From IMG/VR virus record IMGVR_UViG_2531839668_000005: a DNA stretch of 30,815 bases. One strand, written 5' to 3'. The number at the start of each line of letters is the position of its first letter. Within the stretch, counting starts at the first letter, position 1. Below are positions 1,041-26,824 of this stretch, in pieces. The position numbers and the translations under genes were made by a program. This stretch comes from a virus (taxonomy: Duplodnaviria > Heunggongvirae > Uroviricota > Caudoviricetes). The notes beneath the pieces were generated by a model. It ran no database searches. It saw only the letters and a list, made by a program, of their open reading frames with translations, and was not told where the DNA came from.

Positions 1041-1085
1041 GAGTTAATTAATAACTGTCTGTTTTTTTATTATAAAAATAAACTA

Positions 1086-1116: not shown

Positions 1117-1322
1117 CGATTTTTACTTTAAACCGGCCATTTTTACACTTGCTATAAAACAGGGGAATTTCAGCTACTCTCAAGTTCCCTTGTTCTGTAC
1201 TGCACCAACTTCGAGAAAACCATCCTGCACAGCAGCGAAGAACCTCCGCTTCAGGAGCTTCGCTCCTTTCTTTTCCCAACTGCTCGTATAGTGACTTCAC
1301 CGCAACGACAAGGGATAACGAA

Positions 1323-1529: not shown

Positions 1530-1549
1530 TTGAATTTAGGAGAGATTTT

Positions 1550-1849
1550 ATGACTATCGAAGAATTTGTGAATGAAGAAAACCATATGTGTAATCTGGGC
1601 CAGGAACTATTCTTTAAAATTTTCGAGCCTGAATCGATTTATAATTTACCCAATAACGAGTTTAATAAAGAAATAATATATTGGCTCAGTCAGTATCTTG
1701 TCGGAAATTTGATACAACCTTTAGACGCGATCTCAGAGCTTAATGCTTCCAAACAAATATATGTTTACGAGACTTGGTTTTCGCTAATTAAATGCCCTGA
1801 TGAAATGAAACTCTTGGCGAAGCGGATAATTGAATATTTATTGGATTAA
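1550..1849 (+). CDS. hypothetical protein (99 aa)
   Basis: ORF beginning 21 bp after alpA with GGAGAG upstream of the ATG; no family recognised. Confidence 0.4.
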   Translation: MTIEEFVNEENHMCNLGQELFFKIFEPESIYNLPNNEFNKEIIYWLSQYLVGNLIQPLDAISELNASKQIYVYETWFSLIKCPDEMKLLAKRIIEYLLD

Positions 1850-2061
1850 GAAATTCATATGGCAATGCAAAGTTTTGCTGCATATTTTAGATTAAAACGT
1901 TAAAGAATAACTTGCATTATTTTTATGACCGTTCTTTTGCAAGGCAGTGAGATGGTTTTAGGTGGGTTGGGTGTGCATAATATTAATAGTGTTAGGACGG
2001 TTTTTAGTATTAAGAAGTAATAATAATAGCCATTGGTGAAAATTATGACGGGATTTTTACC

Positions 2062-2373
2062 ATGACATTTCATATTAATAAGTATAGGAAAGTTAAAATG
2101 AATAATTCAATCATAGTACCAGAAGATAAAGATTTTGTATGTGCGTTTGCGACTTCACCGAATAGCTTTTATGAGGCTATTGAATCCTATCGTAATTATG
2201 TAGATCTAGTCCAAGAGATAGAGTTCGAGCACGTCTTTCTTTATTTATTGTTTTCTATAGTGGTCAATGGTAGTACAGATATTACGATTAATGATGAAGT
2301 ACGAATGTGTATTGAGCAGCTTGTCTATGAAAAAAATAGTATCAGAAATAATAATGCAGATAAAAAGATGTAA
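2062..2373 (+). CDS. hypothetical protein (103 aa; true start may be the internal ATG near 2098)
   Basis: ORF in AT-rich DNA; no family recognised. Confidence 0.35.
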   Translation: MTFHINKYRKVKMNNSIIVPEDKDFVCAFATSPNSFYEAIESYRNYVDLVQEIEFEHVFLYLLFSIVVNGSTDITINDEVRMCIEQLVYEKNSIRNNNADKKM

Positions 2374-2544
2374 AGGCTGTAATAAATTATCATGGGTACA
2401 GACAGCACAAGTCTGTACCTTCTTATTTTAATTCAACAGATAATGATACATGAAAATTATGTGCTTTTGATAGTGGTCATCTGGTTTTCTATAGTAAACA
2501 TTATAGGATATAGGTTATCCTGAATTTTAATATTATGCTCTTTT

Positions 2545-2850
2545 TTATTTAAAAGAGCTGAAAAATACAGGATTTAAATGGTGTTGGTATTTAAACTCAG
2601 TAGGTATAGTAACACTCGCATCAATCAGTTCTGTGATAGCCTGATAAAATTGAGTGGGTGTAATATGTATCCCTTCTTGCTGTGCTATGGGCGTAACACG
2701 ATGAAAAATTAGGTAAACAATGCTCTTATCTGGCTTATACGACGCGATTAATGTAAGCAACCAGAATACATTGTGAATAGTAGTGTTAAGATTATGACTT
2801 TCAACTGATGATTGATTATTTTGAAAGTAAGTGGAGAGTCTTTTTTGCAT
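2545..2850 (-). CDS. hypothetical protein (101 aa)
   Basis: ORF immediately downstream of 2915-3478 on the same strand; no family recognised. Confidence 0.3.
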   Translation of the reverse strand: MQKRLSTYFQNNQSSVESHNLNTTIHNVFWLLTLIASYKPDKSIVYLIFHRVTPIAQQEGIHITPTQFYQAITELIDASVTIPTEFKYQHHLNPVFFSSFK

Positions 2851-2914
2851 AAAGGTATCGTTTTTTTGTTAATGTTATCACTCGCGTGGAGAAAATTACC
2901 ACGCTGTAATGTTT

Positions 2915-3478
2915 TTAAAATGGAATGCCGTCTGCAGGATTTCGTCTTCTGGAGTTTTTAACTGATTTTGTTTTACTCCAGGCACGATAAAAATTAAACG
3001 AATTGGCAAAATCTTCTGTCTCCAGTCTGGATTTTCTGAATTTATCCATCAGATCTTCATTGAAACGACGAGGAATTCCCTTAACGCACAAGTTTGAATT
3101 CAGATATACCTGATTATCTATGGTGTCACGAATAAGTATTTTTTTTCCAAATAACTCTTTGAATGCACGTGAAACATTTGATTTATTCAGCCCAAGCTCT
3201 TTGGCAGTACGTGACTGTGAAAAATCAGGAATAATATTACCGTAATCAATGGCTGAGAAGAGATAAATCACAATTCTAAATGCTGTAGGCGTCAAATCCA
3301 TTCTGGCGAGTGTCGCCATATTACCTTTAAATACCATTGAGAAATCGTCCTTGAAGGACGTCTTTTTATAGCTGGTTGCTTTAATTTTTATTTCTTCTAG
3401 ATCTTCGGGCATAACCTCTAATGCTTCTGCAATAATGGATTTTTGTTCTTTAGTTAATACAACACTTGTGATTGACAT
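2915..3478 (-). CDS. putative winged-helix/HTH DNA-binding protein (replication-initiator-like or regulator)
   Basis: 187 aa; segment AKELGLNKSNVSRAFKELFGKKIL resembles an HTH recognition helix; three iteron-like direct repeats lie about 450 bp away. Confidence 0.45.
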   Translation of the reverse strand: MSITSVVLTKEQKSIIAEALEVMPEDLEEIKIKATSYKKTSFKDDFSMVFKGNMATLARMDLTPTAFRIVIYLFSAIDYGNIIPDFSQSRTAKELGLNKSNVSRAFKELFGKKILIRDTIDNQVYLNSNLCVKGIPRRFNEDLMDKFRKSRLETEDFANSFNFYRAWSKTKSVKNSRRRNPADGIPF

Positions 3479-3939
3479 AATGGCTCCTTTTTTATTGTTG
3501 TGATTACAGACATGGCATATTTAATTTATTTGTCAATGGTTTTGATGATATTATTTTAATTATATCTTATTTGAATTTTTTATCCGTTCTTTGGTGGTGG
3601 TAATAGGTTGTAAAATTTGAAACGAGGGGTGCTAAATTTAACCATCACCTGTTATGTGATTGATAATTTTTGGTGCTGAAATTAACAACGGCATATTTTG
3701 TATAATCATATGATTTTATTAGATAATTTTTGATTTTGATCTGCAAGATAAAAGAGTGATAAAGAAATAAGAAACCACAGTTTTGCATTTGATCGATACT
3801 CAAGGCCTTGGTGTACCTGATGAAAACATTTTTATTATTGCTTTTCTTAAATAATATCATTTGTAAATTGAAGCCTGCGCAACTGTGTGTTACGCCCCAT
3901 TGGGCTTCAGAACATCACTATAGTGTTTTCAGTCAGTAT

Positions 3940-4053
3940 AAATACGCTTCGCGCACGAGTTCACAGTATTTAGGTTTACTGTCATTAAAAATACGCTTCG
4001 TGCAGAAGTTCAGAAAAATGGGGTTAGCTGTCAGCACAAATACGCTTCGCGCA
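3940..4053. repeat. three direct repeats of AAATACGCTTCG(C/T)GCA at 49-bp spacing (iteron-like)
   Basis: Copies at 3940-3955, 3989-4004 and 4038-4053; the first two continue with the related GAGTTCACAG / GAAGTTCAGA extension. Confidence 0.7.
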
Positions 4054-4517
4054 AAAAAAAATCAGGAGGCTAAGTTGATCGGGAAAGCGAACACAGATAC
4101 ATGATTTACCCGTTTGCTGACTACGGCTCACGCCGGGACCCTTCGGAAAAACCCTTTCTGCTTCAGCGAGTGAGTGCTGCGGGCACTCAGAGGCGCTGCC
4201 AGGGAGACAAAATTAAGTTTTTCAACTGTTTGGTAAAAATAATTAACATTTATAGGTAGTCGGGGCGTAAGCCAGTGCGTAGCACGCTCTCAAAAAATAT
4301 TCCTGTGGGTTTCTTATCTGCAATAGGGAAATAACTCAGATAATTGATATATGAAAAAACAATACAATCGGGAAGACACAACTTTAGCACAGTAAAAGCT
4401 ATTTGTATTTATGAGGAATAAAATATATATGAATAATAAAATATTTTTATTTTGCTATTGATTTTAATTTTTAAGATGATAGTACTTAATTATAAAAACA
4501 AAATAATGGAGGATATT

Positions 4518-4943
4518 ATGAGTGCTATTAATGTGTTATCTCAGGAGGAAAAATTTATACATGTTGTTGATAAATTTATAACCCATAATCACAACGGCGT
4601 TAATAACAATGTCTTTTATAAAAAACTTTATGTTCTCTTCGCCGGATATCATCTGAAGTATTTTTATTCACGGGCGCAATATCGCAATTCGTGTTATCAC
4701 GTTGATAATATCATGCAGATGTTTATGGGTGTCGTTTCTACCCTGAAGACCCCTCTGCTCAGGCAACTCGCAAACAGTGACACATTGCTGCATTGCCTGA
4801 ATTCGCTCGTGAATTATATTTCAGGCAATCTGGATGAAGCAGAGCACATTTATGCTGATTTACTGGCACAGTATGAAAAGAAACGCATTGCACGTTCTCT
4901 GGCTTATACACCACCAGGATCCGTGGTCAGGAAAAGACTGTGA
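4518..4943 (+). CDS. hypothetical protein (141 aa from the ATG at 4518)
   Basis: GGAGG 8 nt upstream of the ATG at 4518 (the track ORF starts earlier at 4452). C-terminus ...PPGSVVRKRL matches the C-terminus of the ankyrin protein at 8169-9122. Confidence 0.5.
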   Translation: MSAINVLSQEEKFIHVVDKFITHNHNGVNNNVFYKKLYVLFAGYHLKYFYSRAQYRNSCYHVDNIMQMFMGVVSTLKTPLLRQLANSDTLLHCLNSLVNYISGNLDEAEHIYADLLAQYEKKRIARSLAYTPPGSVVRKRL

Positions 4944-5030
4944 GACATCGGAAATGCGCCGGACAAGGCAGAGTATGGCAGAGTGACATAAAAGCAGTCG
5001 TTTCCCGCAAGATATTACCGGGCATTAAAA

Positions 5031-5061
5031 AGGCAGGATCCACCGATTTGGTGTCCTGCCT
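5031..5061. terminator. bidirectional hairpin between convergent genes
   Basis: AGGCAGGA ... TCCTGCCT perfect 8-bp inverted repeat between the plus-strand gene ending 4943 and the minus-strand gene ending 5085. Confidence 0.4.
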
Positions 5062-5084
5062 GGCGGGATTATTTTATTGTGGTC

Positions 5085-5363
5085 TTACTTATCAACGACC
5101 TGCCAGCCATCATCTGTTTTGACCAGCTTGACAGCCGCTGTGCGTTTTTCGTTATCGACAACAGCTGTTACATTGCATTTATAGCTTTTATCCGATAGTT
5201 TTTCGCAGTCGTGTTTTTTGACTGATTTTAACTTCCGCAGCATGTCAGGCGTGATATCGTTTCTCGCTATGGATTTAACGATGGCATTCGTCTGCTCCAC
5301 GACCTTATTCATCGCAGTGTAAATATCCTGCTCAGACGGTTCACTGGTGCAGCCGGTCAGCAA
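5085..5363 (-). CDS. putative lipoprotein, mature domain; signal peptide lies in an adjacent frame (possible frameshift)
   Basis: ORF begins L-T-G-C (lipobox) at a TTG. An ATG at 5402-5404 encodes MKTYAFTTLIASIF then stops; adding one T to the T6 run (plus-strand A6 at 5362-5367) would give MKTYAFTTLIASIFLLTGC..., a canonical lipoprotein signal peptide. Confidence 0.5.
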   Translation of the reverse strand: MLTGCTSEPSEQDIYTAMNKVVEQTNAIVKSIARNDITPDMLRKLKSVKKHDCEKLSDKSYKCNVTAVVDNEKRTAAVKLVKTDDGWQVVDK

Positions 5364-5430
5364 AAAATGGACGCAATGAGTGTGGTAAATGCATATGTTT
5401 TCATAAAATAATCCCAGACGGTAGAGTACG

Positions 5431-5829
5431 TTATTGAAAAAGGCCGGTTTTCATCTTGCTGTTGTTTTCAGAGAACGTCCACTTGCTGACGGTTTCGCCT
5501 TTAAATTCGATTTCCAGCGTTTTGGCCTGCGTCTGTGAACCCCCGGTCAGCAGTCCAATCACGGGAATGAATGTGGTGGCATCAAACTGATTGTTGTCCA
5601 TCGAATAAGTCCATTGTTCATTGCCACTATCAAGTGTAGTTTTGGTTTCGGGCTGACCGAATGCGGTAATGATTTCTGATTTCGTTGTTTTATTTTTGAT
5701 GATTTTCGACTGCAGACTTTGTGATGTTTCTTTTTTTAGATGCTGGTTGCCTGATGTTGAACAGCCAGAAATAAGTAAAGAAGAAATAAAAAACACAGAA
5801 ATCATGAATCTGTTCATAAGTTTTCTCAT
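5431..5829 (-). CDS. putative lipoprotein (132 aa)
   Basis: N-terminus MRKLMNRFMISVFFISSLLISGCS has a hydrophobic signal sequence and a LISGC lipobox. Confidence 0.6.
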   Translation of the reverse strand: MRKLMNRFMISVFFISSLLISGCSTSGNQHLKKETSQSLQSKIIKNKTTKSEIITAFGQPETKTTLDSGNEQWTYSMDNNQFDATTFIPVIGLLTGGSQTQAKTLEIEFKGETVSKWTFSENNSKMKTGLFQ

Positions 5830-5866
5830 ATTAATTTTTTATGTTTGCGGTGGTGTGAAATTAATA

Positions 5867-6142
5867 TCATCTTATAAAAACAACTCTGTCTGCATATTTC
5901 TTTTTAATAATGCAGATAAGAATAATGACGCTGGCAAAAAACGTAATGACTGAGGCAGGAGTGCTGCCGGTCAATGAAAACACTAACCAGGCGAGAGCTA
6001 ATGCCACGAATTGAAACAGGAATGCCACACTGAGTGGACTTTCACCATAGGCCACTTTTGCATGGCAACCTTTGCAAACCCGCACACCGTGTGGGCTTTG
6101 TGTAAAGCAGAAAGGGCAGCTAATCGTTTTATTATCCATCAT
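5867..6142 (-). CDS. small zinc-ribbon membrane protein (91 aa)
   Basis: CPFC...CKGC cysteine pairs at the N-terminus followed by two hydrophobic helices. Confidence 0.5.
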   Translation of the reverse strand: MMDNKTISCPFCFTQSPHGVRVCKGCHAKVAYGESPLSVAFLFQFVALALAWLVFSLTGSTPASVITFFASVIILICIIKKKYADRVVFIR

Positions 6143-6327
6143 GACTCCGTAGCCTGATTTAAGGTGATGTATTTTTGAACATTTTCGATGAATGAACTGC
6201 TTTAGTAAAATTGCTTGTACCGATCGATGGATCTCAGGCGATAGGTTATATCTATTATAACTAGATTATCGATCTATAAAAACGATCGATATCTTATTGA
6301 CTATCACTAAAGTATGGACTAGCTAAC

Positions 6328-7563
6328 TTATGGTGCAGGATGGTTGTTGTTTTTAAATGATTGTTCTTTATTGGTATTTGTTGTCATGGGATGACAGGGT
6401 GTCAGAATATGTAGGTGGAGGATTTGGTGGAAAGGATGTGCAGTGGCATGTAACAGAGACATGCCTCTGCGCCTGAGAAGTGCCACAATATGGACGAGCA
6501 ATACAAGCCATGAATACAGACGACGCTGGCGGGGTATCTGACGAGCTGTATTGTGCAGATTGCTCCTGAGCTGGATGATACCCACTGTCTCCTGTTGTCT
6601 TTCCAGACGAATTTTTTCTTCAAGCTGATGGATTTTCTCCAGAATCGTTTCCCGGTTTGCAGCCTGCTCTTCAGACTCGCATGATGGCACTGGCACTGGC
6701 ACTGGCACTGGCACTGGCACTGGCACTGGCGCGGTTGTAGGTTCTATTGGCCTCTGGGCTTCTTTCAGTAAACTCAGATGCTCAGGCGTAAAATCAATCA
6801 GTGCTTGCAGGGAAGACCAGCCATATTTTTTACCCAACTGAGATGCTTTAAAGGCAATACCCTGGTATTGAAATGAAAATCCACTCATTTTACCCGTAGT
6901 GGCGATATTGGGTTTGCAGGTCACTCCTTCCTGTTCCAGTAAGCGAACAAAGGTTAGTAAATCGGGATGGTGTGTTAATGCATTGTCGAGCAGGGCCTGC
7001 AACAGTGACTTAGGGCAGGGAGCTGCTGTGCGTTCTGCCATCATCAGTTCATTACGGGAAGGCTTCCTTTTATCCTGGCGGCTACTGCCGGTTACACCCG
7101 TAGTTTCGGTGAGGCCGTGTACTCTCTCCAGCTCACTGATAATCCGTGTGCCGATAAGATTTTCATTTTTCCCCAGGTACAGTTTTCCACCGACCATGTT
7201 AATACGACTTGCAATGATATGAATATGCTGCCCATCCGGATCATCGTGCATGATATAGCAGCGAAGATGGGTGTCAGTGAAGCCCATTCGGGCCATATAA
7301 TCGTCAGCGAATGCTGCCCACTGTCTGTTTGACAGTTTCTCACCCTTTGGCAGGCGAAGTGAATTATGCCAGACAGGTTTGGCGACATCGGGACGCAGCA
7401 GTCGGGTGCCTTCAAATTCACTTATAAGCTCAGCAGCAGTGCTACCCGTCATGTTGCCACCGATGACATAAGGCGTGATTTTGTGGTGAGAACCTGACTT
7501 CAGGCTATAAATAACCACACCTGTGAATTGTTTACCCCTTTTTATTTTCTGCATGCCTTTCAT
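6328..7563 (-). CDS. mobA: MobA/relaxase-family mobilization protein (C-terminal boundary uncertain)
   Basis: N-terminal region contains the relaxase histidine triad context (HDDPDGQHIHIIASRI) and an early Tyr; start overlaps the mobC stop. Includes a (Pro-Val)7 linker; sequence after the linker is low-complexity and may not all be coding. Confidence 0.7.
   Translation of the reverse strand: MKGMQKIKRGKQFTGVVIYSLKSGSHHKITPYVIGGNMTGSTAAELISEFEGTRLLRPDVAKPVWHNSLRLPKGEKLSNRQWAAFADDYMARMGFTDTHLRCYIMHDDPDGQHIHIIASRINMVGGKLYLGKNENLIGTRIISELERVHGLTETTGVTGSSRQDKRKPSRNELMMAERTAAPCPKSLLQALLDNALTHHPDLLTFVRLLEQEGVTCKPNIATTGKMSGFSFQYQGIAFKASQLGKKYGWSSLQALIDFTPEHLSLLKEAQRPIEPTTAPVPVPVPVPVPVPVPSCESEEQAANRETILEKIHQLEEKIRLERQQETVGIIQLRSNLHNTARQIPRQRRLYSWLVLLVHIVALLRRRGMSLLHATAHPFHQILHLHILTPCHPMTTNTNKEQSFKNNNHPAP
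6688..6729. repeat. (CACTGG)7 perfect hexanucleotide tandem repeat
   Basis: Seven uninterrupted CACTGG units on the plus strand; on the minus strand they encode the PVPVPVPVPVPVPV linker inside mobA. Confidence 0.95.
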
Positions 7564-7967
7564 GGGTCTGACTCCAGAAATGTTGAGGGAATAAGGTGAT
7601 CCCTGAGAGTTTTGATTTGTCTGCGCAGGGCGAAGAGTTCTGTACGGGTCAGTTCGCTGTCAGGGCTTTTGCTGTCGAGATGACTCAACAGGTAGTTTAA
7701 ATCCTGTGAAAGGCTGCCAAGTTTTATCCATGCTTCACGATTGATTTCTGGCAGAACCGGCGGGAGTTTATTCAGGGAAGCCATCCTGAGCCATTCTCCT
7801 TTTTTATACTGACCTCTTTTACTGTCGAGAATAATTAATTCTTCTTCATTTAATCTGACACTGATGCAGTGATGTCGTATTTCATTCTCAGGAAATTTGT
7901 CAGTATGGAATTTACCGCGTTTTGATACTCTGGTTATATCATCATCATTACTCATGTCACTGTTCAT
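7560..7967 (-). CDS. mobC: MobC-like relaxosome accessory protein
   Basis: 135-aa ORF directly upstream of and overlapping the relaxase gene start, the conserved mobC-mobA arrangement; ELFALRRQIKTLRDHL region is typical of the family. Confidence 0.6.
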   Translation of the reverse strand: MNSDMSNDDDITRVSKRGKFHTDKFPENEIRHHCISVRLNEEELIILDSKRGQYKKGEWLRMASLNKLPPVLPEINREAWIKLGSLSQDLNYLLSHLDSKSPDSELTRTELFALRRQIKTLRDHLIPSTFLESDP

Positions 7968-8168
7968 AGTTATCCTTTTATTTCATGTTTATTACTACAG
8001 ATAACCGATGAAATGAATAAGTCAAGTTGTTACGGGATAAATAATTTAATTATCTGGATTAAAAAAGGTATACCATTTGACAAATAGTATACCCACGAGG
8101 ACATATCAGATTAATGGTCATTAAATGAATCCTTGCAGACTAAGAAAAGGGTTGTTTACTCCAGAGTT

Positions 8169-16927: not shown

Positions 16928-18157
16928 TTATGCGGCAATAACTTTGTATTTTTGAGACGAAACATAGTCACTCCACCATTGCATGAGAACCACACGTTCT
17001 GTGAGATACTCTGCACGATTGTAGGCTGCAATTATTTCATCTTTTTTCGAGTGGGCAAGGGCGGCTTCTAAGACATCAGTTCTAAACTTGCCACACTCCT
17101 CAGCCGCCGTTCTAGCGATTGATCGCATACCATGAGCTACAAGCTCACCTCCGAAGCCCATACGGATTATAGCCGCATTAGCTGTTTGTTCATGCATGTG
17201 ATTGAGTGGAGCTTTGATACTGGGAAAAACCCACTCTCTATGCCCGCTGATGGCTTTCATTGAATCCAAGACTCGCAAAGATTCTTTGCTCAGTGGAACT
17301 TTGTGAGGCTTCTTCATTTTCATAAACTCCGCCGGGATGTTCCACATGCTGGTTTCTATATCAATATCTGACCATCTTGTGCGAACAGCTTCACCAGGGC
17401 GAACCCATGTGAGAAGTTGCCACTCAATCAGTAGCCTTGTTTCTAAACGGATAGAAGCATTGTTTAGAGCAACCAGGAAGCGGGGGAGTTCGGAAGGGGG
17501 TAATGCTGGCATATTCTGTTTTTTTGGCTTGCTGAACCGTTGCCCCAGGTTGTCAGCCGGATTGAATTCTATGAGTTCTTCTGTTGCTGCATAGCGGAAA
17601 ATTTCATTCAGGCGGGATATGACGCGGCGAAGTGTTTCAAGGACACCTCGTTTTTCTATGGGGTCTAAATGCTGTTTAAGCATTTTAGGGCGAATCTCCT
17701 TAATGGGGGTATCACCCAACGTTGGAAAGATATTTCTCTCTAGGCTTCGCCAGATGTCGTTAGCATGATCCTGGGAGATGCCTGACGTTTTGACTTTCTC
17801 ATCAAGCCACTTCTTGGCTACTGCTTGAAATGTATGTTCCGTTGCATCCTTAAGGGCATTGGCTTTGTGGGTGTTATGAACTTGTGGGTCTATACCATTT
17901 GCAAGCAACGACAAGTACTCATCACGTAAAGCTCGTGCCTTCGCAAGTGTAAGGTGAGGATAGGTTCCTAAGCTCACCTTAGTTCGCTTTTTGGTCACAG
18001 GCACTGCATATCTGAAATACCAATTTTTCTTTCCTCCCTTCGCTAAGGGGGCGATTCGCAGGAGCAAACCATCGCCGTCAAAAAGGTTAACCTCTTTCTC
18101 GGCAGGTTTGGTGCTTTTGATTTCAGTGTCAGTGAGCTTCTTAGCGATTTTTGCCAT
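16928..18157 (-). CDS. int: P4-type tyrosine integrase
   Basis: From the ATG at 18155-18157: MAKIAKKLTDTEIKSTKPAEK...GLLLRIAP...WYFRY... N-terminal arm-binding domain and C-terminal HGMRS...Y catalytic region typical of P4/CP4-57 integrases; adjacent to the ssrA-derived att repeat. Confidence 0.85.
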   Translation of the reverse strand: MAKIAKKLTDTEIKSTKPAEKEVNLFDGDGLLLRIAPLAKGGKKNWYFRYAVPVTKKRTKVSLGTYPHLTLAKARALRDEYLSLLANGIDPQVHNTHKANALKDATEHTFQAVAKKWLDEKVKTSGISQDHANDIWRSLERNIFPTLGDTPIKEIRPKMLKQHLDPIEKRGVLETLRRVISRLNEIFRYAATEELIEFNPADNLGQRFSKPKKQNMPALPPSELPRFLVALNNASIRLETRLLIEWQLLTWVRPGEAVRTRWSDIDIETSMWNIPAEFMKMKKPHKVPLSKESLRVLDSMKAISGHREWVFPSIKAPLNHMHEQTANAAIIRMGFGGELVAHGMRSIARTAAEECGKFRTDVLEAALAHSKKDEIIAAYNRAEYLTERVVLMQWWSDYVSSQKYKVIAA

Positions 18158-18323
18158 GTTTGGGACCCTCATGTTTTGGACCCTTTGTGTTGGGTCCCAA
18201 AAAGGGTGCCATAACGAGTAGATTCTAGCAATTCTCGGTAGACTACTATAGACGTAAAAAAGCCCGCAAGGCTGGTTCCATGCGGGCTTGATAGACTTCA
18301 CTGAACTTCAATATATCAAAAAT

Positions 18324-18368
18324 TGGTGGAGCTGGCGGGAGTTGAACCCGCGTCCGAAATTCCTACAT
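18324..18368 (-). other. ssrA: partial ssrA (tmRNA) 3' end, attachment-site repeat
   Basis: Plus strand TGGTGGAGCTGGCGGGAGTTGAACCCGCGTCCGAAATTCCTACAT is the reverse complement of the 3' terminus of E. coli tmRNA as recalled; the match stops after 45 nt, so only the 3' end is present. Confidence 0.8.
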
Positions 18369-19130
18369 AGCATTTCAATGTCTGTAAAAACAATGATTTG
18401 CTTTGATTTTCAGTTGGTTAGATTTATGCGGTGTCTGTCCGTTTTATGGGTTTTTAACTTTCTGCCGCCAAAGTGCCGCCACTGCATTTGTCGCCTAAAC
18501 GCCTATTCGAAACGATTAATCTCTCGGCGATCTTAATCTTGGAGAGCTTATCTAGGCAGATAAAGCATATTGCTACTCCCGATACCACAAAATAGCTGCT
18601 TAAACCAAAGTATTGCCAAGTAGTTAGATGGTTTATCTTCTCCATCATCTTAGCACTTACTACAACAGAATAACTGAAAGGAAGTGCTACGATGAGACTG
18701 CTCATGAAGTAAATTAGAGTTGTTATGATTTTTATTAATTTTCTATATATGCTGTATTTATATCTTTTTTTATTCCATGCGAATATTTCTTTATGGGTGG
18801 TAATGGAAATTAGACTTTGACATTGGAATAATTATCTATATCGCTAACGGGGTTTGTTGTGTTGAGTAATATTAATCTTTGTTTTTTGTCAATGTGTTAT
18901 CTTTGGTTAATGCAGCAATGCCGTAATCTTCCGCCAGTTTTTTGAAGGTCGGATCTTCACTGCTTTTATACATCTGATATGAAAATTCGCTAATGTTTTT
19001 ACGTGATGTGAATAGTTTATCTTTTTTATAAGTCCACCCTGTTTTAAGCCCTAATAAGGATATAATGGCAGATAGGGAAGGGAATAATATTTTTATAAGT
19101 AACTCTAGTTCGCTATTCATAAATTACTAC

Positions 19131-20147
19131 TTACCTCAAATTAAATAAAGGATTTTTAGTTACGGCATCTTCTAAATGGTCTGGGGCGAAGTGTGCATAG
19201 ACCATGGTCATTTTTATATCTGAATGTCCTAGGATATCCCGCAAAACCAATATGTTTCCACCATTCATCATAAAATGGCTAGCGAATGTATGACGCAGAA
19301 CGTGAGTACATTGACCCTCTGGCAGATCGATACCAGCCCGCTTTACTGCACGCTCAAAGGCTTTTCTGCATGGGGTGAATAACTTCCCCCTATTCTTAGG
19401 CAGTTCTTCATATAAATCCTTAGAAATAGGCACAGTTCGGTTTTTCTTGCCTTTGGTCTTGGTATAAGTGATACGGTATTTTGATACCTGATGACTCTGC
19501 AGGTTTTCGGCTTCGCTCCAGCGTGCGCCGGTGGCCAGGCATATTTTTGCAATCAAAAGCAGGCTGGAGCTTTGAGAATCGGCGCAGGCATCCAGCAGAC
19601 GTTTAATTTCTTCCGGGGTCAGGAACGCCAATTCACTCTCAGCAATTTTAAATGTTGGCAGCCCAGCAAGCGGGTTGGGGGCTGACCAGTGGCCCAGCTT
19701 TTTCAGCGTACCAAAAACAGATGATAGATTGCGCTGTTCAAGGTTTACCGTGCGGGGCTTAACGGGCGACATAAACGTGCCATCTTCATTTCGTACTTCA
19801 CCTTTTAACCGTGCTTCGCGGTATTTCGTAAAGTCACCGGCTGTCAGTTCTGAGGCGATGGGGTCGCCTAGACCATTACAGATAATTCTAAGTTTCGCCA
19901 TGAGGCGCTTGGGGTCTGCGAGTGTCTGACCATACAGGGAATACCAAAGCTCAATTAATTCTGATAGGTGTCGCCGATCATCCTTTTCTCCTAACCACGG
20001 TTTTTTGTTCACTTCTTCCATTGTGAAGCTTTCAAATGCAATGGCTTCGCCTTTGGTAGCAAATTGCTTACGCACGCGCTTACCATTGCGTCCATTGGGA
20101 TAGCACTCACACAACCATTTTCCGTTCGGCTGTTTTCTGATGGTCAT
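19131..20147 (-). CDS. int: P2/186-type phage tyrosine integrase
   Basis: N-terminus ...YPNGRNGKRVRKQFATKGEAIAFE... and C-terminal HVLRHTFASHFMMNGG...LGHSDIKMTMVYAH catalytic region; followed by the CI repressor gene on the same strand. Confidence 0.85.
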   Translation of the reverse strand: MTIRKQPNGKWLCECYPNGRNGKRVRKQFATKGEAIAFESFTMEEVNKKPWLGEKDDRRHLSELIELWYSLYGQTLADPKRLMAKLRIICNGLGDPIASELTAGDFTKYREARLKGEVRNEDGTFMSPVKPRTVNLEQRNLSSVFGTLKKLGHWSAPNPLAGLPTFKIAESELAFLTPEEIKRLLDACADSQSSSLLLIAKICLATGARWSEAENLQSHQVSKYRITYTKTKGKKNRTVPISKDLYEELPKNRGKLFTPCRKAFERAVKRAGIDLPEGQCTHVLRHTFASHFMMNGGNILVLRDILGHSDIKMTMVYAHFAPDHLEDAVTKNPLFNLR

Positions 20148-20150
20148 AAG

Positions 20151-20789
20151 TTAGAGGTTCTTGATTACTTTGACTGCACGTCCTACAACTTCCACATCAT
20201 CTACAGAACATTCAAATGAAGTGTCATCTTGGCTAACTACTATTTTGTTTCCGGGTATGCGCGCAATTTTGACGATGCTTTTAACTCCGTCCATATCGAC
20301 TAACCAGAAGCCATTACTGACTTGTTTAACGGACGTATCCACTACAAAGCTATTATTAGCTGTTTTAACAAATAAAGCGTTGGATGAGTCACCATCGAGC
20401 AGGCTGCTATCAAGAAGAATTTCATCACTTGCCTGCAGTTCGCCGTTCTTCAGTTCAACACGTTTGATGCTAGGAGCAACGATCTTAGAAAGTGGTCTTA
20501 CAGTGACGGGAGGTTCATTTTTGAGATTTGTTTCTTCGTTCTCACACGCATACATATCTCCTTGACCAGTAGCCAGCCATAGAAGGGAAGCTCCTGTTTC
20601 AAGGGCACATTGAATTACCCATTCGGCAGGAAAGCTATCCCTTAAGTATCTGTTAGCCATAGTGCTTTTGGATACTTCCAGATGTTCGCAGAGCTGCTGT
20701 CGTGAGCTGAAGTTGTAAGCCTTAATAAGCCTGTTAATTGCATCGCGCCCACCACTATCATTTCCCGCTTTGATTAAACTCATAATCAA
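20151..20789 (-). CDS. cI: 186-like CI immunity repressor
   Basis: CALETGASLLWLATGQGDMY and C-terminal WLVDMDGVKSIVKIARIPGNK...FECSVDDVEVVGRAVKV closely resemble phage 186 CI as recalled. Confidence 0.75.
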   Translation of the reverse strand: MIMSLIKAGNDSGGRDAINRLIKAYNFSSRQQLCEHLEVSKSTMANRYLRDSFPAEWVIQCALETGASLLWLATGQGDMYACENEETNLKNEPPVTVRPLSKIVAPSIKRVELKNGELQASDEILLDSSLLDGDSSNALFVKTANNSFVVDTSVKQVSNGFWLVDMDGVKSIVKIARIPGNKIVVSQDDTSFECSVDDVEVVGRAVKVIKNL

Positions 20790-20794
20790 ACCTC

Positions 20795-20823
20795 TTGACG
20801 TATATAAAAAGTGATCTTAATAT
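20795..20823 (+). promoter_or_regulatory. sigma70-type promoter candidate for the early lytic operon (pR-like)
   Basis: TTGACG (20795-20800), 17-bp spacer, TAATAT (20818-20823), in the cI to apl intergenic switch region. Confidence 0.45.
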
Positions 20824-20899
20824 CCATTCATGGTTTGAAAAGCAAAACCAAACCACATAAAACAAGATAAAACGAAACCAAACTAAGAGATACTGCACT

Positions 20900-21058
20900 A
20901 TGAGTACTGATATTTCAATTCGTGTACCAAAAGAGATGGCAACGCCTGCTGAGTTCGCTGAATGGGAAGGTATCTCCCGCGGCTCTGTGTATCAAAAAAT
21001 TCACCATGGTCAGCTTGCTAAATACATGGTCAAGAAGGAAAAAACAAAGGCCGCGTAA
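20900..21058 (+). CDS. Apl/Cox-like small HTH excision-regulatory protein (52 aa)
   Basis: Small ORF, not in the supplied track, at the position of apl/cox in P2/186-like phages; translated by eye as MSTDISIRVPKEMATPAEFAEWEGISRGSVYQKIHHGQLAKYMVKKEKTKAA. Confidence 0.5.
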   Translation: MSTDISIRVPKEMATPAEFAEWEGISRGSVYQKIHHGQLAKYMVKKEKTKAA

Positions 21059-21173
21059 GCCTGCGTTATTTAATGTACAAAACCGATCAGGTCCGTGAAT
21101 CCCTCGGTCATTCCAACTTCCGCGTCATTGTTGGTAAGTAAGTTCAATTATGAGAACTTTCTAAGGGGGTAGC

Positions 21174-21683
21174 ATGTTTGATTATAAGATTTCCAAACAC
21201 CCGCATTTTGATGAAGCCTGTAGAGCTTTTGCACTTCGTCACAATATGGCGAAGCTGGCAGAACGTGCAGGAATGAATGTCCAGACTCTGCGAAACAAAC
21301 TCAACCCAGATCAACCGCATCAGCTCAATGCGCCAGAAATCTGGCTGCTTACCGATCTGACTGAAGATTCAACGCTGATAGATGGTTTTCTGGCACAGAT
21401 TCACTGCCTGCCATGTGTACCGATTAATGAGGTAGCAAAAGAGAAACTGCCGCATTACGTCATGAGTGCAACCGCAGAGATCGGGCGTGTTGCTGCAGGT
21501 GCGGTATCTGGCGATGTAAAAACCAGTGCCGGTCGTCGTGATGCCATCAGCAGCATTAATTCTGTAACACGACTGATGGCGCTGGCGGCTGTTTCATTGC
21601 AGGCCCGTTTACAGGCTAACCCTGCGATGGCGAGTGCAGTTGATACTGTGACTGGCCTCGGTGCTTCATTCGGTTTGCTGTGA
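21174..21683 (+). CDS. cII: 186-like CII regulatory protein
   Basis: 169 aa, HTH region AKLAERAGMNVQTLRNKLNP; position and size match phage 186 CII. Confidence 0.65.
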   Translation: MFDYKISKHPHFDEACRAFALRHNMAKLAERAGMNVQTLRNKLNPDQPHQLNAPEIWLLTDLTEDSTLIDGFLAQIHCLPCVPINEVAKEKLPHYVMSATAEIGRVAAGAVSGDVKTSAGRRDAISSINSVTRLMALAAVSLQARLQANPAMASAVDTVTGLGASFGLL

Positions 21684-21690
21684 GGTGCTT

Positions 21691-21987
21691 ATGCTGACGA
21701 AAGAACCATCATTTGCGTCGCTGCTGGTAAAACAAAGTCCGGCAATGCACTACGGTCACGGCTGGATCACGGGTGAGGATGGAAAACGCTGGCATCCATG
21801 TCATTCACAAGATGAATTGCTGTCTGAATTGACCACGAGGAAACGGAGAAAGTCCAAATGTATGCGGCAGAAAGTGAAGTGGTTTATCAGTTTCGTTACA
21901 GAGGGGAGAGTTATTCAGTACCTGAAGATGATTTGCTCTGTTGCTATCCGTCATTGTCGGGCGATGGCAGTTACTTTTTCACGTTAA
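21691..21987 (+). CDS. hypothetical phage early protein (possibly Fil-like); 3' boundary uncertain
   Basis: ATG at 21691 preceded by GAGGTG; overlaps the next ORF in another frame, so one of the two boundaries is wrong. Confidence 0.3.
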   Translation: MLTKEPSFASLLVKQSPAMHYGHGWITGEDGKRWHPCHSQDELLSELTTRKRRKSKCMRQKVKWFISFVTEGRVIQYLKMICSVAIRHCRAMAVTFSR

Positions 21988-22082
21988 AGGATGGGACGTT
22001 TTTACGGGGAGAGCAGGTTAAAGAGACGATACGAAAAAATGTATCTCCTCTTGAGCGTTACCGTAAGAACAAAGAACGATAG
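21858..22082 (+). CDS. hypothetical phage early protein (74 aa)
   Basis: ATG with GGAGAAAG upstream; within the early operon. Confidence 0.4.
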   Translation: MYAAESEVVYQFRYRGESYSVPEDDLLCCYPSLSGDGSYFFTLKDGTFLRGEQVKETIRKNVSPLERYRKNKER

Positions 22083-22104
22083 CTGCGTTTGGGGGATATG
22101 AAGT

Positions 22105-22446
22105 ATGGCAATTAATGGCGCTGCAGCAACTGTTCCATTAAGCCCCGGTGAACGCCTGAATGGACTTAATCACATTGCGGAGTTAAGGGCGAAAGTTTTT
22201 GGCATGAATATTGAGTCAGAGCTTGAGCGGTTTATTAAAGATATGCGTGATCCACGGGATATCAATAATGAACAAAATAAACGGGCACTGGCTGCCATAT
22301 TCTTTATGGCAAAAATTCCAGCTGAACGTCATAGCATCAGCATTAATGAGCTGACCACTGACGAAAAGCGGGAGCTGATTAAAGCAATGAATCATTTTCG
22401 TGCAGTGGTGAGCTTATTTCCCAGACGGCTAACCATGCCGAATTAA
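22105..22446 (+). CDS. hypothetical phage early protein (113 aa)
   Basis: ORF in the early operon; no family recognised. Confidence 0.45.
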   Translation: MAINGAAATVPLSPGERLNGLNHIAELRAKVFGMNIESELERFIKDMRDPRDINNEQNKRALAAIFFMAKIPAERHSISINELTTDEKRELIKAMNHFRAVVSLFPRRLTMPN

Positions 22447-22513
22447 CCAACTAATGAAATTAATGGCGTAAACCCGCCGGGCATCCCTTTATCTAAATTC
22501 AGGAGAATTGATT

Positions 22514-22747
22514 ATGCGTAATATTGAAACCCTCACGACTAAAACCGGACCGGATGATGCAGGGCTTAATATTTTACTGACAGAGGCTCGTCTGGAAGAA
22601 CGCCGGGCAAGGGCTGAAGCAATGGCAGCTCGCCTTGATAGCCTGGCGTGTCATATCACATCCCGCCAACTAAACCACGTCGAAGCGGCAGAACTGCTGC
22701 GTGTGACTGCTGAAGCAATCCAGAACGAAGCGCAGGAGATCCACTGA
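22514..22747 (+). CDS. hypothetical phage early protein (77 aa from the ATG at 22514)
   Basis: AGGAG at 22501-22505 before the ATG at 22514; stop overlaps the next start (TGATG). Confidence 0.45.
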   Translation: MRNIETLTTKTGPDDAGLNILLTEARLEERRARAEAMAARLDSLACHITSRQLNHVEAAELLRVTAEAIQNEAQEIH

Positions 22748-22974
22748 TGGCTGATGCAATGGATCTCGTACAGCAGCGAGTTGAAGAAGAACGCCAACGT
22801 CATATCCGTGCTGCCCGTGCCAAAGCGCCGGGCGTGTCCCGCGTGCTTTGCGTTGAGTGTGAAGCGCCAATTCCGCCAGCACGCCGCCGTGCCATTCCGG
22901 GGGTGCAGCTTTGCATTACCTGTCAGGAAATCGCAGAGCTGAAAGGCAAACATTACAACGGAGGTGCTGTATGA
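22747..22974 (+). CDS. TraR/DksA-family C4 zinc-finger protein
   Basis: 75 aa with CVECEAPIPPARRRAIPGVQLCITCQ (Cys-x2-Cys ... Cys-x2-Cys), as found in the P2-like zinc-finger early protein. Confidence 0.7.
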   Translation: MADAMDLVQQRVEEERQRHIRAARAKAPGVSRVLCVECEAPIPPARRRAIPGVQLCITCQEIAELKGKHYNGGAV

Positions 22975-23828
22975 GCACCATCCTGAAATGGGCGGGAAAT
23001 AAAACCGCCATTATGTCCGAACTGAAAAAACACCTTCCTGCTGGCCCGCGACTGGTTGAACCTTTCGCGGGTTCCTGTGCTGTGATGATGGAGACGGATT
23101 ACCCCAGCTATCTGGTTGCGGATATTAATCCTGATTTAATCAACCTCTATAAAAAGGTTGCTGCTGATTGTGAATCGTTTATATCTCGCGCCAGAGTTTT
23201 ATTTGAGATCGCAAACAGGGAGGTGGCTTATTACAACATAAGGCAGGAGTTTAATTACTCCACTGAAATTACTGATTTCATGAAAGCGGTATATTTCCTG
23301 TATCTCAATCGTCACGGTTACCGTGGTTTATGTCGCTATAACAAGAGCGGGCATTTCAACATTCCCTACGGTAATTATAAAAATCCGTATTTCCCTGAAA
23401 AAGAAATTCGCGCATTTGCAGAAAAGGCCCAGCGAGCAACGTTTATCTGCGCCAGCTTTGATGAAACGCTGGCGATGTTGAAGGCGGGGGATGTGGTGTA
23501 TTGCGATCCGCCGTATGACGGTACGTTTTCCGGCTATCACACTGATGGTTTCACTGAAGATGACCAGTATCACCTGGCATCTGTTCTTGAACATCGGTCA
23601 TCAGAAGGACATCCGGTCATTGTTTCTAACAGTGACACATCCCTGATCCGTTCGCTGTATCGCAATTTTACTCACCACTACATCAAGGCAAAACGCAGCA
23701 TCGGTGTGGCAGCTGGCGAGGGTAAATCAGCAACAGAAATCATTGCTGTTTCCGGGCCGCGCTGCTGGGTGGGATTTGATTATTCGCGTGGCGTGGATAG
23801 TTCTGCCGTGTACGGAGTACGTGCATGA
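22971..23828 (+). CDS. dam: DNA adenine methyltransferase (Dam-like, N6-adenine, DPPY motif)
   Basis: [11 protein letters not shown]...FAGSCAV (AdoMet-binding region) and YCDPPYDG catalytic motif; GGAGG upstream of the ATG at 22971; stop overlaps the gene A start (ATGA). Confidence 0.85.
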
Positions 23829-26239
23829 GCCATGCCGATATGAACAACTGCTGCGGCTTTAACGAGGCTGCCGCATCGTTCTCATGGAACAGCCCGAAAA
23901 AGGCCATTAACCCTTATCTGGACCCGGCGGAAGTTGCGCCGGTTTCTGCGCTTTCAAACCTGATCACTCTGTACGCTGCCGATAACGAGCAGGAACAGCT
24001 GCGCCGCGAGGCACTGAGTGATCAGGTCTGGGAGCGTTATTTCTTTAATGAATCCCGTGATCCTGTCCAGCGCGAAATGGAGCAGGATAAGCTCATTAGT
24101 CGGGCAAAGCTGGCGCATGAGCAGCAGCGTTTTAATCCAGATATGGTCATTCTGGCGGACGTCAATGCCCAGCCTTCCCATATCAGCAAGCCGCTGATGC
24201 AACGTATTGAATACTTCAGCAGCCTGGGCAGGCCAAAGGCTTATTCCCGCTATTTGCGTGAGACGATTAAGCCATGTCTGGAACGACTGGAGCATGTACG
24301 CGACAGTCAGCTATCCGCTTCTTTTCGCTTTATGGCAAGCCATGAAGGGCTGGATGGCCTGCTTATCCTGCCTGAAATGAGTCAGGATCAGGTGAAGCGC
24401 CTGTCTACCCTTGTCGCTGCGCATATGAGCATGTGCCTTGATGCAGCTTGTGGTGATTTGTATGCCACCGATGACGTTAAGCCAGAAGAAATCCGCAAGA
24501 CATGGGAAAAGGTGGCAGCGGAAACCCTGCGTCTGGATGTTATCCCGCCTGCGTTTGAGCAACTCCGTCGGAAAAGAAACCGCCGTAAACCCGTGCCCTA
24601 TGAACTCATTCCGGGTTCGCTGGCGCGTATGTTGTGCGCTGACTGGTGGTACCGGAAATTATGGAAGATGCGTTGCGAATGGCGGGAAGAGCAGTTGCGT
24701 GCTGTCTGCCTGGTCAGCAAAAAAGCATCTCCCTATGTCAGCTATGAAGCCGTGATGCATAAACGTGAGCAGCGCCGTAAGTCGCTGGAGTTTTTTCGTT
24801 CTCATGAACTGGTGAACGAAGACGGCGACACGCTGGACATGGAGGATGTGGTAAACGCCAGCAGCAGCAACCCTGCGCATCGCCGCAATGAGATGATGGC
24901 CTGTGTTAAAGGCCTGGAGCTTATCGCGGAAATGCGTGGTGACTGCGCCGTTTTCTACACCATTACCTGTCCGTCACGTTTCCATTCCACGCTCAATAAC
25001 GGCAGACCAAACCCAACCTGGACAAATGCGACGGTAAGACAAAGCAGCGATTATCTGGTCGGCATGTTTGCTGCATTTCGTAAGGCGATGCACAAAGCCG
25101 GGTTGCGCTGGTATGGCGTGCGGGTGGCTGAGCCGCATCATGACGGTACGGTTCACTGGCACCTGTTGTGTTTCATGCGCAAAAAAGACCGCCGTGCCAT
25201 TACTGCATTGTTGCGTAAGTTTGCCATCCGTGAAGACCGCGAGGAACTGGGTAATAACACTGGTCCACGCTTTAAATCTGAGCTGATAAACCCGCGCAAA
25301 GGAACACCGACAAGCTACATCGCGAAATACATTAGTAAGAACATTGACGGGCGTGGTCTGGCTGGCGAGATCAGCAAGGAAACGGGTAAATCCCTGCGTG
25401 ATAACGCTGAATACGTTAATGCCTGGGCGTCTCTGCATCGTGTTCAGCAATTCCGCTTCTTTGGTATTCCGGGGCGTCAGGCTTACCGTGAACTGCGATT
25501 GCTGGCTGGTCAGGCGGCAAGGCAACAGGGCGACAAAAAAGCAGGTGCGCCGGTACTGGATAACCCGCGCCTTGATGCCATCCTGGCTGCTGCTGATGCT
25601 GGTTGTTTTGCCACTTACATCATGAAGCAGGGTGGTGTACTGGTTCCCCGCAAATATCACCTCATCAGAACTGCTTATGAAATTAACGAAGAGCCGACCG
25701 CCTATGGCGATCACGGCATTCGTATTTATGGCATCTGGTCACCCATTGCAGAGGGCAAGATCTGCACTCATGCAGTGAAGTGGAAAATGGTTCGTAAAGC
25801 CGTTGACGTTCAGGAGGCGGTAGCCGACCAGGGCGCTTGCGCCCCTTGGACTCGTGGCAATAACTGTCCCCTTGCTGAAAATTTGTACCAACAAGGGAAA
25901 GACAAATCAGCTGATGGAGATACCAGAACGGATATCACCCGCATGGATGACAAGGAGTTGCACGATTACCTGCACAGTATGAGCAAAAAAGAGCGCCGGG
26001 AACTGGCAGCAAGGTTACGCCTGGTGAAACCGAAACGGCGTAAAGACTACAAACAGCGAATTACAGATCATCAGCGACAGCAGCTCGTGTATGAACTGAA
26101 GTCCAGGGGATTTGATGGCAGCGAGAAAGAGGTCGATTTACTGCTTCGCGGCGGCAGTATTCCGTCAGGAGCAGGCCTGCGTATCTTCTATCGGAACCAG
26201 CGTTTGCAGGAAGATGATAAGTGGCGAAACCTGTATTAA
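23825..26239 (+). CDS. P2/186 gene-A-type rolling-circle replication initiator (HUH endonuclease)
   Basis: HWHLLCF (HUH motif) and SYIAKYISK (catalytic tyrosine motif); roughly 800 aa, as for P2 gpA. Confidence 0.85.
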
Positions 26240-26331
26240 TTACGCGGGTTAACAATTCGTGCTCTTAATAATACCAGGCATATCAGGCCGATGAGCGTAA
26301 AAAAACGTTTTACATCAGTAAGATTATTATA

Positions 26332-26351
26332 TACTGTAAATATAAACAGTG
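26332..26351. promoter_or_regulatory. LexA (SOS) box
   Basis: taCTGTaaatataaACAGtg: exact CTGT-N8-ACAG with an AT-rich spacer, about 40 bp upstream of the 26392 ORF. Confidence 0.6.
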
Positions 26352-26391
26352 GTTATTTATACAGTATTTCTTTGGTGTTATAGGAGGAAAG

Positions 26392-26580
26392 ATGCAGGAC
26401 TATTTTTTGGAGTCTTTGAAGCTCCAGCGCATTGATTTTTTTCTTAAGCTTGTAGCGGCTAGTGAGTGTAGTGATGAAGAGAAGGGGCTGGCTTTGCAGT
26501 GGGTTTCTGAACTGACAGATGAACTCATGGCAAAAATCAGAACCCACGAATACAACCGCTCAATGGATGTCATCAGTTGA
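26392..26580 (+). CDS. hypothetical protein, possibly the N-terminal part of a Tum-type SOS-inducible antirepressor
   Basis: GGAGG before the ATG; immediately downstream of the LexA box; overlaps the upstream extension of the DinI-like ORF in another frame. Confidence 0.4.
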   Translation: MQDYFLESLKLQRIDFFLKLVAASECSDEEKGLALQWVSELTDELMAKIRTHEYNRSMDVIS

Positions 26581-26590
26581 GGTGACTTTT

Positions 26591-26824
26591 ATGCGCATTG
26601 AAATAATGATCGATAAAGAGCAGAAGATTAGCCAGTCTACCCTGGACGCCTTTGAATCCGAGCTTTACCGCAATCTGCGCCCCCTGTATCCCAAAACGGT
26701 AATTCGTATCCGTAAAGGTAGCTCTAACGGTGTGGAACTGACCGGACTGCAACTGGACGAAGAAAGGAAACAAGTAATGAAAATTATGCAGAAGGTGTGG
26801 GAAGACGACAGCTGGCTGCATTAA
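26591..26824 (+). CDS. DinI-family protein (Tum C-terminal-domain-like)
   Basis: MRIEIMIDKEQ...YPKTVIRIRKGSSNGVELTG...VWEDDSWL parallels E. coli DinI (MRIEVTIAK...VSVRYAAANNLSVIG...TWESADDWF) as recalled. Confidence 0.7.
   Translation: MRIEIMIDKEQKISQSTLDAFESELYRNLRPLYPKTVIRIRKGSSNGVELTGLQLDEERKQVMKIMQKVWEDDSWLH

Follow-up and report, generated by a model that had tools for sequence, protein, structure and literature searches.

We consider it very likely that two independent integrative elements, a genomic island with a P4-type integrase and a Fels-2-like prophage, lie in tandem at the 3' end of the single transfer-messenger RNA (tmRNA) gene, ssrA, of Escherichia coli strain 98-3133. The junction of the two elements is contained in IMG/VR virus record IMGVR_UViG_2531839668_000005, a stretch of 30,815 nucleotides (nt) that is hereafter called the window, where a 45-nt piece of the ssrA 3' end separates their integrase genes (int). 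The features that carry this finding are the following (window coordinates; att, attachment site; aa, amino acids; bp, base pairs):

1..18323: island, about 18.4 kb, cut at the left end of the window; its outer att remnant starts 82 bp beyond base 1, beside ypjA
16928..18157, minus strand: P4/IntA-type tyrosine integrase, 409 aa, intact, ATG at 18157, with Arm-DNA-bind_3, Phage_int_M and Phage_integrase domains
18324..18368, minus strand: displaced ssrA 3' fragment (last 45 nt); int-proximal att of the prophage, equal to the annotated attP core of Fels-2
18324-18337: int-proximal att core of the island (CGCCAGCTCCACCA in ssrA sense), the last 14 nt of the segment, from comparison with the distal remnant
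18369..30815: int-proximal 12.4 kb of a defective Fels-2-like (Felsduovirus) prophage; the whole element measures 22.8 kb and reaches the complete ssrA beyond the right end of the window
19131..20147, minus strand: Fels-2-type (P2/186 family) tyrosine integrase, 338 aa, intact, with Int_N and Phage_integrase domains

The 3.5 kb around the integrase pair are 99.9% identical to NZ_CP051001.1, the chromosome of Escherichia coli O157:H16 strain 98-3133, and the entire window aligns to this chromosome in reverse orientation with 99.97% identity. The RefSeq annotation of NZ_CP051001.1 and its surroundings supplied the wider context of the window. Read in the sense of ssrA, the locus runs from smpB through the complete ssrA, the prophage (22.8 kb), the displaced 45-nt end, the island (18.4 kb) and a degenerate 13-nt end to ypjA. 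In the same direction the prophage reads ogr, then tail genes, then a truncated portal gene, then A, cII, apl, cI, int and a cargo gene, and the island reads P4-type int, a serine recombinase gene, two ParB/RepB genes, an IS3 copy, a relaxase gene and the AlpA gene.

The plus strand of the window at 18324-18368 reads TGGTGGAGCTGGCGGGAGTTGAACCCGCGTCCGAAATTCCTACAT, a sequence present as a single copy in the window and in none of 100 shuffles. Its reverse complement is exactly the final 45 nt of the ssrA gene annotated in the same genome, and its identity to the complete gene continues for one more base (to 18323), giving a direct repeat of 46 bp. A permissive scan with the Rfam tmRNA model returned a 5'-truncated match at the segment (42.5 bits; gathering score 47), with high posterior probability confined to the last ~45 nt, and neither ARAGORN nor Rfam at the gathering threshold identified a tmRNA gene within the window. 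The complete ssrA (363 nt, tag ANDENYALAA, confirmed by ARAGORN) was found next to smpB outside the window, 22,787 bp to the right of the 45-nt copy and past the ogr end of the prophage. A preliminary description of this DNA, made without database searches, had reported a 45-nt match to the tmRNA 3' end and had taken it for an att repeat rather than the functional gene. Both statements hold, since the segment is an exact copy of the end of a complete gene that lies elsewhere on the chromosome, and since it equals the attP core of Fels-2.

At the outer end of the prophage the same 46 bp recur as the 3' end of the complete ssrA. When attP was rebuilt by fusing the int-side arm from the window with the sequence that follows the complete ssrA, its core of 45-47 bp was the same as the attP annotated in the Fels-2 record, and the ogr-side arm was nearly identical to that of Fels-2. 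This arm has a hairpin followed by a T-run, which would terminate ssrA. In RE-2010 the same 45 nt lie within a terminal repeat of 84 bp. Fels-2 and SopEPhi have been reported to integrate into ssrA (PMC3448106).

The outer end of the island is marked by a shorter remnant. In an alignment of the ypjA side with K-12, chromosomal homology starts exactly at CGCCAGCCCACCA, which corresponds to the terminal 14 nt of ssrA minus one T (CGCCAGC-CCACCA, 13 nt), and in K-12 the same 13-nt remnant, located where CP4-57 ends, bears the annotation psaA, an ssrA pseudo-fragment. We give weight to this distal repeat because it falls exactly on the homology breakpoint and matches K-12 psaA exactly. Another candidate for the outer repeat of the island, the 11-mer GTTCAACTCCC at window 66-76, was rejected, since its orientation is wrong, a match of this length is expected by chance and its position is within the island. 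Alignment of the repeats gives an att core of the last 13-14 nt for the island and of all 45-47 nt for the phage. Two displaced ssrA 3' fragments are present, one per element and both in ssrA orientation (45/46 nt, perfect; 13 nt, with one deletion), and the 45-nt segment is to all appearances the junction of prophage and island and the int-side att of both. The shared att junction proposed in the preliminary description had implied further ssrA-derived repeats at the outer ends, and both elements have one.

A fragment of a gene could in principle also have been left behind when the ssrA region was duplicated or rearranged by an event that was not site-specific and had nothing to do with the integrases, and the bare presence of such a fragment is all that speaks for this scenario. 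The boundary of the fragment coincides to the base with the Fels-2 attP core, its flanks match phage DNA on one side and island DNA on the other, and precise empty and singly occupied sites exist in other genomes (see below). A duplication relic is thereby effectively refuted, and we regard its probability as next to nil.

The integrases themselves are of two different families, as had been stated in the preliminary description, and both genes lie on the minus strand. The left one has the P4/IntA architecture and matches the NCBIfam model PRK09692 above its cut-off (445 bits; cut-off 434). It is 49% identical to K-12 IntA and 86% identical to a gene labelled 'CP4-57 integrase' in phage phi467, and the motifs HGMRS, LAH and AAY were found by eye in its translation. 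The right one, of P2/186 type with Int_N and Phage_integrase domains, is 92-94% identical to the integrases of Salmonella phages RE-2010 and Fels-2 and of Escherichia phage Cartapus; inspection of its translation by eye likewise revealed the family motifs ATGAR, HVLRH, LGH and VYAH. Domain architectures differ between the two proteins, which are not alignable (E = 0.05).

If two elements had inserted separately, each should also be found without the other. Synthetic junctions of 600 bp were searched in 5426 complete E. coli genomes, and four occupancy states of the site were recovered:

Empty site, ssrA joined to the ypjA flank: 1389 genomes with at least 80% of the junction covered; listed matches 100% identical
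Island only, ssrA joined to island int-proximal DNA: 967 genomes with at least 80% of the junction covered; listed matches 100% identical
Phage only, phage cargo arm, 45-nt copy and ypjA flank: at least 8 genomes with this cargo allele, to which the count refers
Tandem, both integrases with the repeat between them: at least 27 genomes

These four states, with junctions precise to the base, are strong evidence for two separate site-specific insertions, and together with the outer repeats they bear out the earlier proposal of two tandem elements that share an att junction at ssrA. Elsewhere in E. coli, contigs combine this prophage slot with at least three distinct P4-integrase islands. The association also extends beyond this species. 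Among ten relatives of the right integrase with at least 69% identity in one-genome-per-species data, nine have a tmRNA 3' fragment 130-1700 bp downstream of them, and the locus of the tenth ends within the int gene. A P4-type int comes after the tmRNA fragment at four loci, in Klebsiella, Photorhabdus, an Enterobacteriaceae metagenome-assembled genome and Shewanella; three of these belong to the relatives with at least 69% identity, and the Shewanella integrase is 61% identical.

The recurrence of the tandem could also be explained by a single composite element of 41 kb with two integrases that is moved or inherited as a unit. The same int alleles and the same island module occur in tandem in at least 27 E. 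coli genomes, tandems are found in other genera as well, and one Klebsiella 'phage' record has both integrases. Any such scenario has to account for the fact that prophage and island each occur alone with precise junctions, and that the same prophage slot is paired with three or more different islands. In addition, there is no flanking repeat pair with matching arms, the DNA downstream of the three ssrA copies being different in each case. The Klebsiella record is unannotated, with integrase genes about 1.4 kb apart, and may represent a predicted prophage region rather than a packaged genome. We therefore hold a composite element to be highly improbable and retain two separate insertions as the explanation of the locus.

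How the two insertions could coexist without loss of tmRNA follows from the arms of the elements. Each brings a copy of the ssrA 3' end and a terminator of its own, and therefore each insertion rebuilds a working tmRNA gene and displaces the earlier 3' end downstream. The Fels-2-type integrase would recombine within its 45-47 bp core, which spans the T-arm and the 3' acceptor strand of the tRNA-like domain. By analogy with CP4-57, the P4-type integrase would use the last ~14 nt only, with strand exchange in the 7-bp CGCCAGC, 5' of T357; the exchange is placed there because excision of CP4-57 leaves ssrA-deltaT357. A crossover 3' of T357, considered on account of the intact ssrA in island-only strains, was dropped, as deltaT357 of CP4-57 puts the exchange 5' of this base.

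With respect to the order of arrival, the island most likely came first and the phage later entered the rebuilt ssrA. We infer this order because island-only genomes are common and because phage-free K-12 has exactly this distal remnant. An identical sequence would result if a Fels-2-like phage had first entered a virgin ssrA and the island had later used the displaced 45-nt copy as a secondary attB. That copy does hold the full 14-nt core of the island, and phage-only genomes with an intact displaced copy beside the ypjA flank exist (strains 4314 and 2012EL-2448). The numbers, however, are 967 island-only genomes versus at least 8 phage-only genomes, and the degenerate distal remnant, shared with phage-free K-12, looks old and tied to the island state. 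Arrival of the phage first would also require the P4-type integrase to use a gene fragment without the upstream tRNA-like context, and we consider this order unlikely.

Some points weigh against our interpretation of a tandem with the island as the older element, or narrow it. The order of integration is not readable from sequence alone, and excision of either element from 98-3133 is a prediction. The crossover position of the island is borrowed from CP4-57, to whose integrase that of the island is only 49% identical. The distal repeat of the island is short (13 nt), degenerate and not significant when taken alone. Finally, the prophage is defective, so that the word 'phage' refers here to origin and not to present capacity.

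Further features were identified in the island:

1323..1529, plus strand: AlpA-family regulator (Pfam Phage_AlpA, E = 1.4e-19; 36% identical to K-12 AlpA)
6328..7563, minus strand: MobA/VirD2-type relaxase (Pfam Relaxase, E = 1.6e-22; RefSeq annotation concordant)
18160..18198, plus strand: three TTGGGACCC-like motifs with 15-bp spacing, located between att and the start codon of int; no second cluster of this kind in the window
18254..18289, minus strand: island-borne hairpin and T-run, terminator-like, immediately downstream of the 45-nt ssrA copy

The AlpA-family protein is probably the excision factor of the island, and the predicted relaxase suggests that the island may be mobilisable by conjugation. 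The hairpin sequence at 18254-18289 directly follows the complete ssrA in the 967 island-only genomes, where it would serve as the ssrA terminator. The TTGGGACCC-like motifs may be candidate arm-type or regulatory/operator sites; no copy of the motif was found at the distal end of the island. The island also encodes a large serine recombinase, two ParB/RepB-like proteins and an ankyrin-repeat protein and contains a copy of IS3. Next to the P4-type int, at window 13312-16651 on the minus strand, lie the two ParB/RepB-like genes and the gene of the large serine recombinase, a module that follows the same int allele in other E. coli genomes (loci L007-L009 and L014). The IS3 copy, at about 10540-11711, stands out by a G+C content (GC) of about 55% versus about 35% around it and has a truncated DUF4928 gene as its neighbour; near window 13125-13240 there is another IS3 fragment. 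The P4 satellite core genes psu, delta, sid and alpha (primase) appear neither in the RefSeq annotation of the island nor, by Pfam, among its ten larger open reading frames (ORFs), a search that did not scan every small ORF.

The prophage on the right could be mapped against its complete relatives:

20151..20789, minus strand: 186-type CI repressor (Phage_CI_repr and Phage_CI_C domains; RefSeq annotation concordant)
about 30339-30445: junction of the prophage deletion, mapped versus RE-2010

Its gene order (int, cI, apl, cII, fil, followed further on by A and then by tail genes, D and ogr) is the order of the family. The lysis-lysogeny switch of 186 type (CI, Apl, CII) and an A-type replication gene are present, and Apl, as encoded in the corrected assembly, and Apl of Fels-2 are 100% identical. 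The set of P2-type morphogenesis genes (Q, P, O, N, M, L, lysis, baseplate, tail) is incomplete. RE-2010 coordinates 12555-24078 are without counterpart in the prophage, which corresponds to a deletion of ~11.5 kb that removed the rest of the portal gene, the terminases, scaffold, capsid, lysis genes, baseplate and most of the tail fibre. A portal fragment (29530-30630, minus strand), in RefSeq an N-terminally truncated portal pseudogene, is directly followed by the C-terminal domain of the tail fibre. The prophage is a defective derivative that alone cannot make virions, with int and cI still intact. Strain MSB1_4I has an intact sibling of this prophage that shares its int and cargo alleles.

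Two stretches of this prophage hold genes outside the common set. At window 28478-29497 (plus strand), between replication gene A and the portal gene, we observed a two-gene cassette for a 138-aa protein and a 200-aa TIR-domain protein (PADLOC TIR models, E down to 5e-11); RE-2010 has an AIPR gene at this place. In P2, the interval between replication gene A and the portal gene is a classic defence hotspot. Beyond the window, a 160-aa BRCT-domain gene lies between the ogr-side att arm and ogr (locus L002, 8917-9399), where Fels-2 has ~115 bp. By its position, the gene appears to occupy another cargo slot, at the prophage end opposite to int.

The cargo slot between int and att carries a gene of its own:

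18454..19122, minus strand: cargo gene, 222-aa predicted three-helix membrane protein (WP_001083625.1, phrog_21256)

In the preliminary description, the segment 18369-19130 was said to be AT-rich and to hold two small ORFs. The composition was confirmed (34.3% GC versus about 46% in both integrase genes). The ORFs at 18454-18705 and 18872-19120 are indeed there, but both are fragments of one gene of 222 codons, from which a T is missing at 18822 and at 18881. The missing bases are evident in comparison with the RefSeq assembly of the same strain and with the unrelated strain C21, both of which are otherwise identical and have the gene intact.

These two positions are part of a wider pattern. 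Relative to NZ_CP051001.1 the window has two substitutions and seven single-base deletions, mostly in or beside short homopolymer runs, and the deletions are located at the following positions:

5364, 15733, 15798, 18822, 18881, 21043 and 27442: single-base deletions of the window versus the RefSeq assembly of the same strain

In the window, at least three genes are split that RefSeq gives as intact, namely those of the large serine recombinase (which appears as 15091-15696 plus 15731-16651), the 222-aa cargo protein and apl (split at 21043). The deletions are probably sequencing errors of an earlier assembly version. Several of the 'small ORFs' of the window are then probably artefacts of single-base homopolymer errors, and gene calls from this version need care.

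The 222-aa protein is predicted to consist of three long hydrophobic helices and a helical soluble part of roughly 95 residues. Its family comprises 22 clusters without a Pfam domain, whose named members all come from genera of Enterobacteriaceae. Searches against Pfam, NCBIfam and PADLOC gave sub-threshold noise only (best PADLOC E = 0.007), and the match to phrog_21256 leads to a PHROGs family without assigned function. An AlphaFold model, built with 17 homologues, reached a mean predicted local distance difference test (pLDDT) score of 71, and a Foldseek search of this model against viral structures returned nothing informative (best E 0.18). A homologue with 53% identity occupies the same slot in many E. 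coli contigs. Another, 47% identical, was seen in Klebsiella quasipneumoniae (L015 and L016, 4001-4624) in a neighbourhood of metabolic and LysR genes that is free of phage genes; because this is an ordinary chromosomal context, the family is not exclusively phage-borne.

In relatives of the prophage the int-att slot contains a 343-aa protein, an anti-phage deoxycytidine triphosphate (dCTP) deaminase, an HNH protein, a 401-aa protein (RE-2010) or nothing (Fels-2). The integrase-att interval of P2-like phages has been described as a minor defence hotspot in a 2026 survey (PMC13586616). The present slot resembles that hotspot in holding different genes between att and int from one relative to the next, and differs from it in that the 222-aa gene matches no known defence family. 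From position alone, a role of the 222-aa protein in phage exclusion is a reasonable guess. A narrowly distributed membrane protein in a known slot for anti-phage cargo is a candidate for such a role.

The tandem may also have consequences for the host. In K-12, excision of CP4-57 leaves ssrA-deltaT357, abolishes trans-translation and turns on ArfA (PMC10107115). We tentatively suggest that a Fels-2-type phage lodged between ssrA and a P4-integrase island could act as a buffer, and possibly as a repair patch, for tmRNA, an idea we hold to be possible but somewhat less than probable. Because the int-side att of the island is the displaced 45-nt copy, excision of the island from the tandem would put the deltaT357 scar into that copy and not into tmRNA, and therefore should leave tmRNA undamaged. 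If buffering operates in this way, loss of the island would be uncoupled from the ArfA 'rescue switch'. As to repair, a Fels-2-type phage that enters a scarred ssrA would restore the gene, because its attP has a perfect copy of the last 45-47 nt.

The genomes offer two observations on this idea. A deltaT scar in the ssrA at the functional position of an empty site was present in only 1 of the 5426 genomes, that of a laboratory strain. In the phage-only strain MSB1_4I, which has the complete sibling prophage, the functional ssrA is intact (L102, 31169-31531) and the displaced copy reads CGCCAGC-----CA (L100, about 1768-1830), a delta-5 scar that is typical of other ssrA islands. This footprint would be expected either from loss of an island out of a tandem or from repair of a scarred ssrA by the phage, and fits either. 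The prediction would be that the prophage decouples excision of the island from inactivation of tmRNA.

The arrangement has a close counterpart in Salmonella Typhimurium LT2. According to Table 1 of PMC10107115, which draws on Williams 2003, the ssrA of LT2 carries a P4-integrase element and Fels-2. To the extent that this table describes it, the likeness lies in the same target and the same pairing, Fels-2 with its P2-type integrase plus Stm27X with its P4-type integrase, and in a phage repeat that is perfect (CGCCAGCTCCACCA) beside a mutated distal fragment of the P4-type element. As far as the same source goes, the locus differs in its E. coli host, in a distal fragment that is deltaT here and delta-5 in LT2, in the content of the island and in the deletion of the prophage.

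With CP4-57 of K-12 the island shares an attB at the ssrA 3' end, an identical CGCCAGC-CCACCA remnant by ypjA (this mutated distal string is also given in Table 1 of PMC10107115) and the combination of an IntA-type integrase with AlpA. The proteins themselves have diverged (integrase 49%, AlpA 36% identical), and the present island carries IS3, two ParB/RepB genes and genes for a relaxase and a large serine recombinase. The gene content of CP4-57 is missing from it, and blastn detected no DNA in common with CP4-57 except two IS-related snippets of 76-88 bp. A further difference is that the present island is not adjacent to the functional ssrA. To judge from these features, the island is the same kind of element as CP4-57, but a different one.

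The prophage can be set beside Fels-2, SopEPhi and RE-2010 (Felsduovirus, Peduoviridae), with which it shares the integrase (92-94%), Apl (100%), a 186-type CI, the attP core and the ogr-side arm, as well as the gene order from int, cI, apl, cII and fil to A and on to D and ogr. It differs from these phages by the loss of ~11.5 kb, which extends from the portal N-terminus across most of the tail fibre gene, by other cargo in the int-att and A-Q slots and by the extra BRCT-domain gene between ogr and ssrA.

Tandem arrays at tRNA and tmRNA genes (tDNAs), whose members have an integrase and a gene fragment each, are a category defined by the Islander algorithm (PMC4383910). The locus of 98-3133 agrees with it in having the intact target gene at one end, one fragment and one integrase per element, and precise unoccupied or singly occupied sites in related genomes. 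The tandem at ssrA is a further instance of an arrangement that is already well known: tandem ssrA arrays, ssrA integration of Fels-2 type and CP4-57-type islands whose distal fragment is mutated have all been described before, and dedicated software (Islander/TIGER) exists for the detection of such arrays. Our results add to this the base-precise boundaries of both elements, the defect of the prophage, the frameshifts of the window, the placement of the cargo protein and the idea that a phage may buffer tmRNA.

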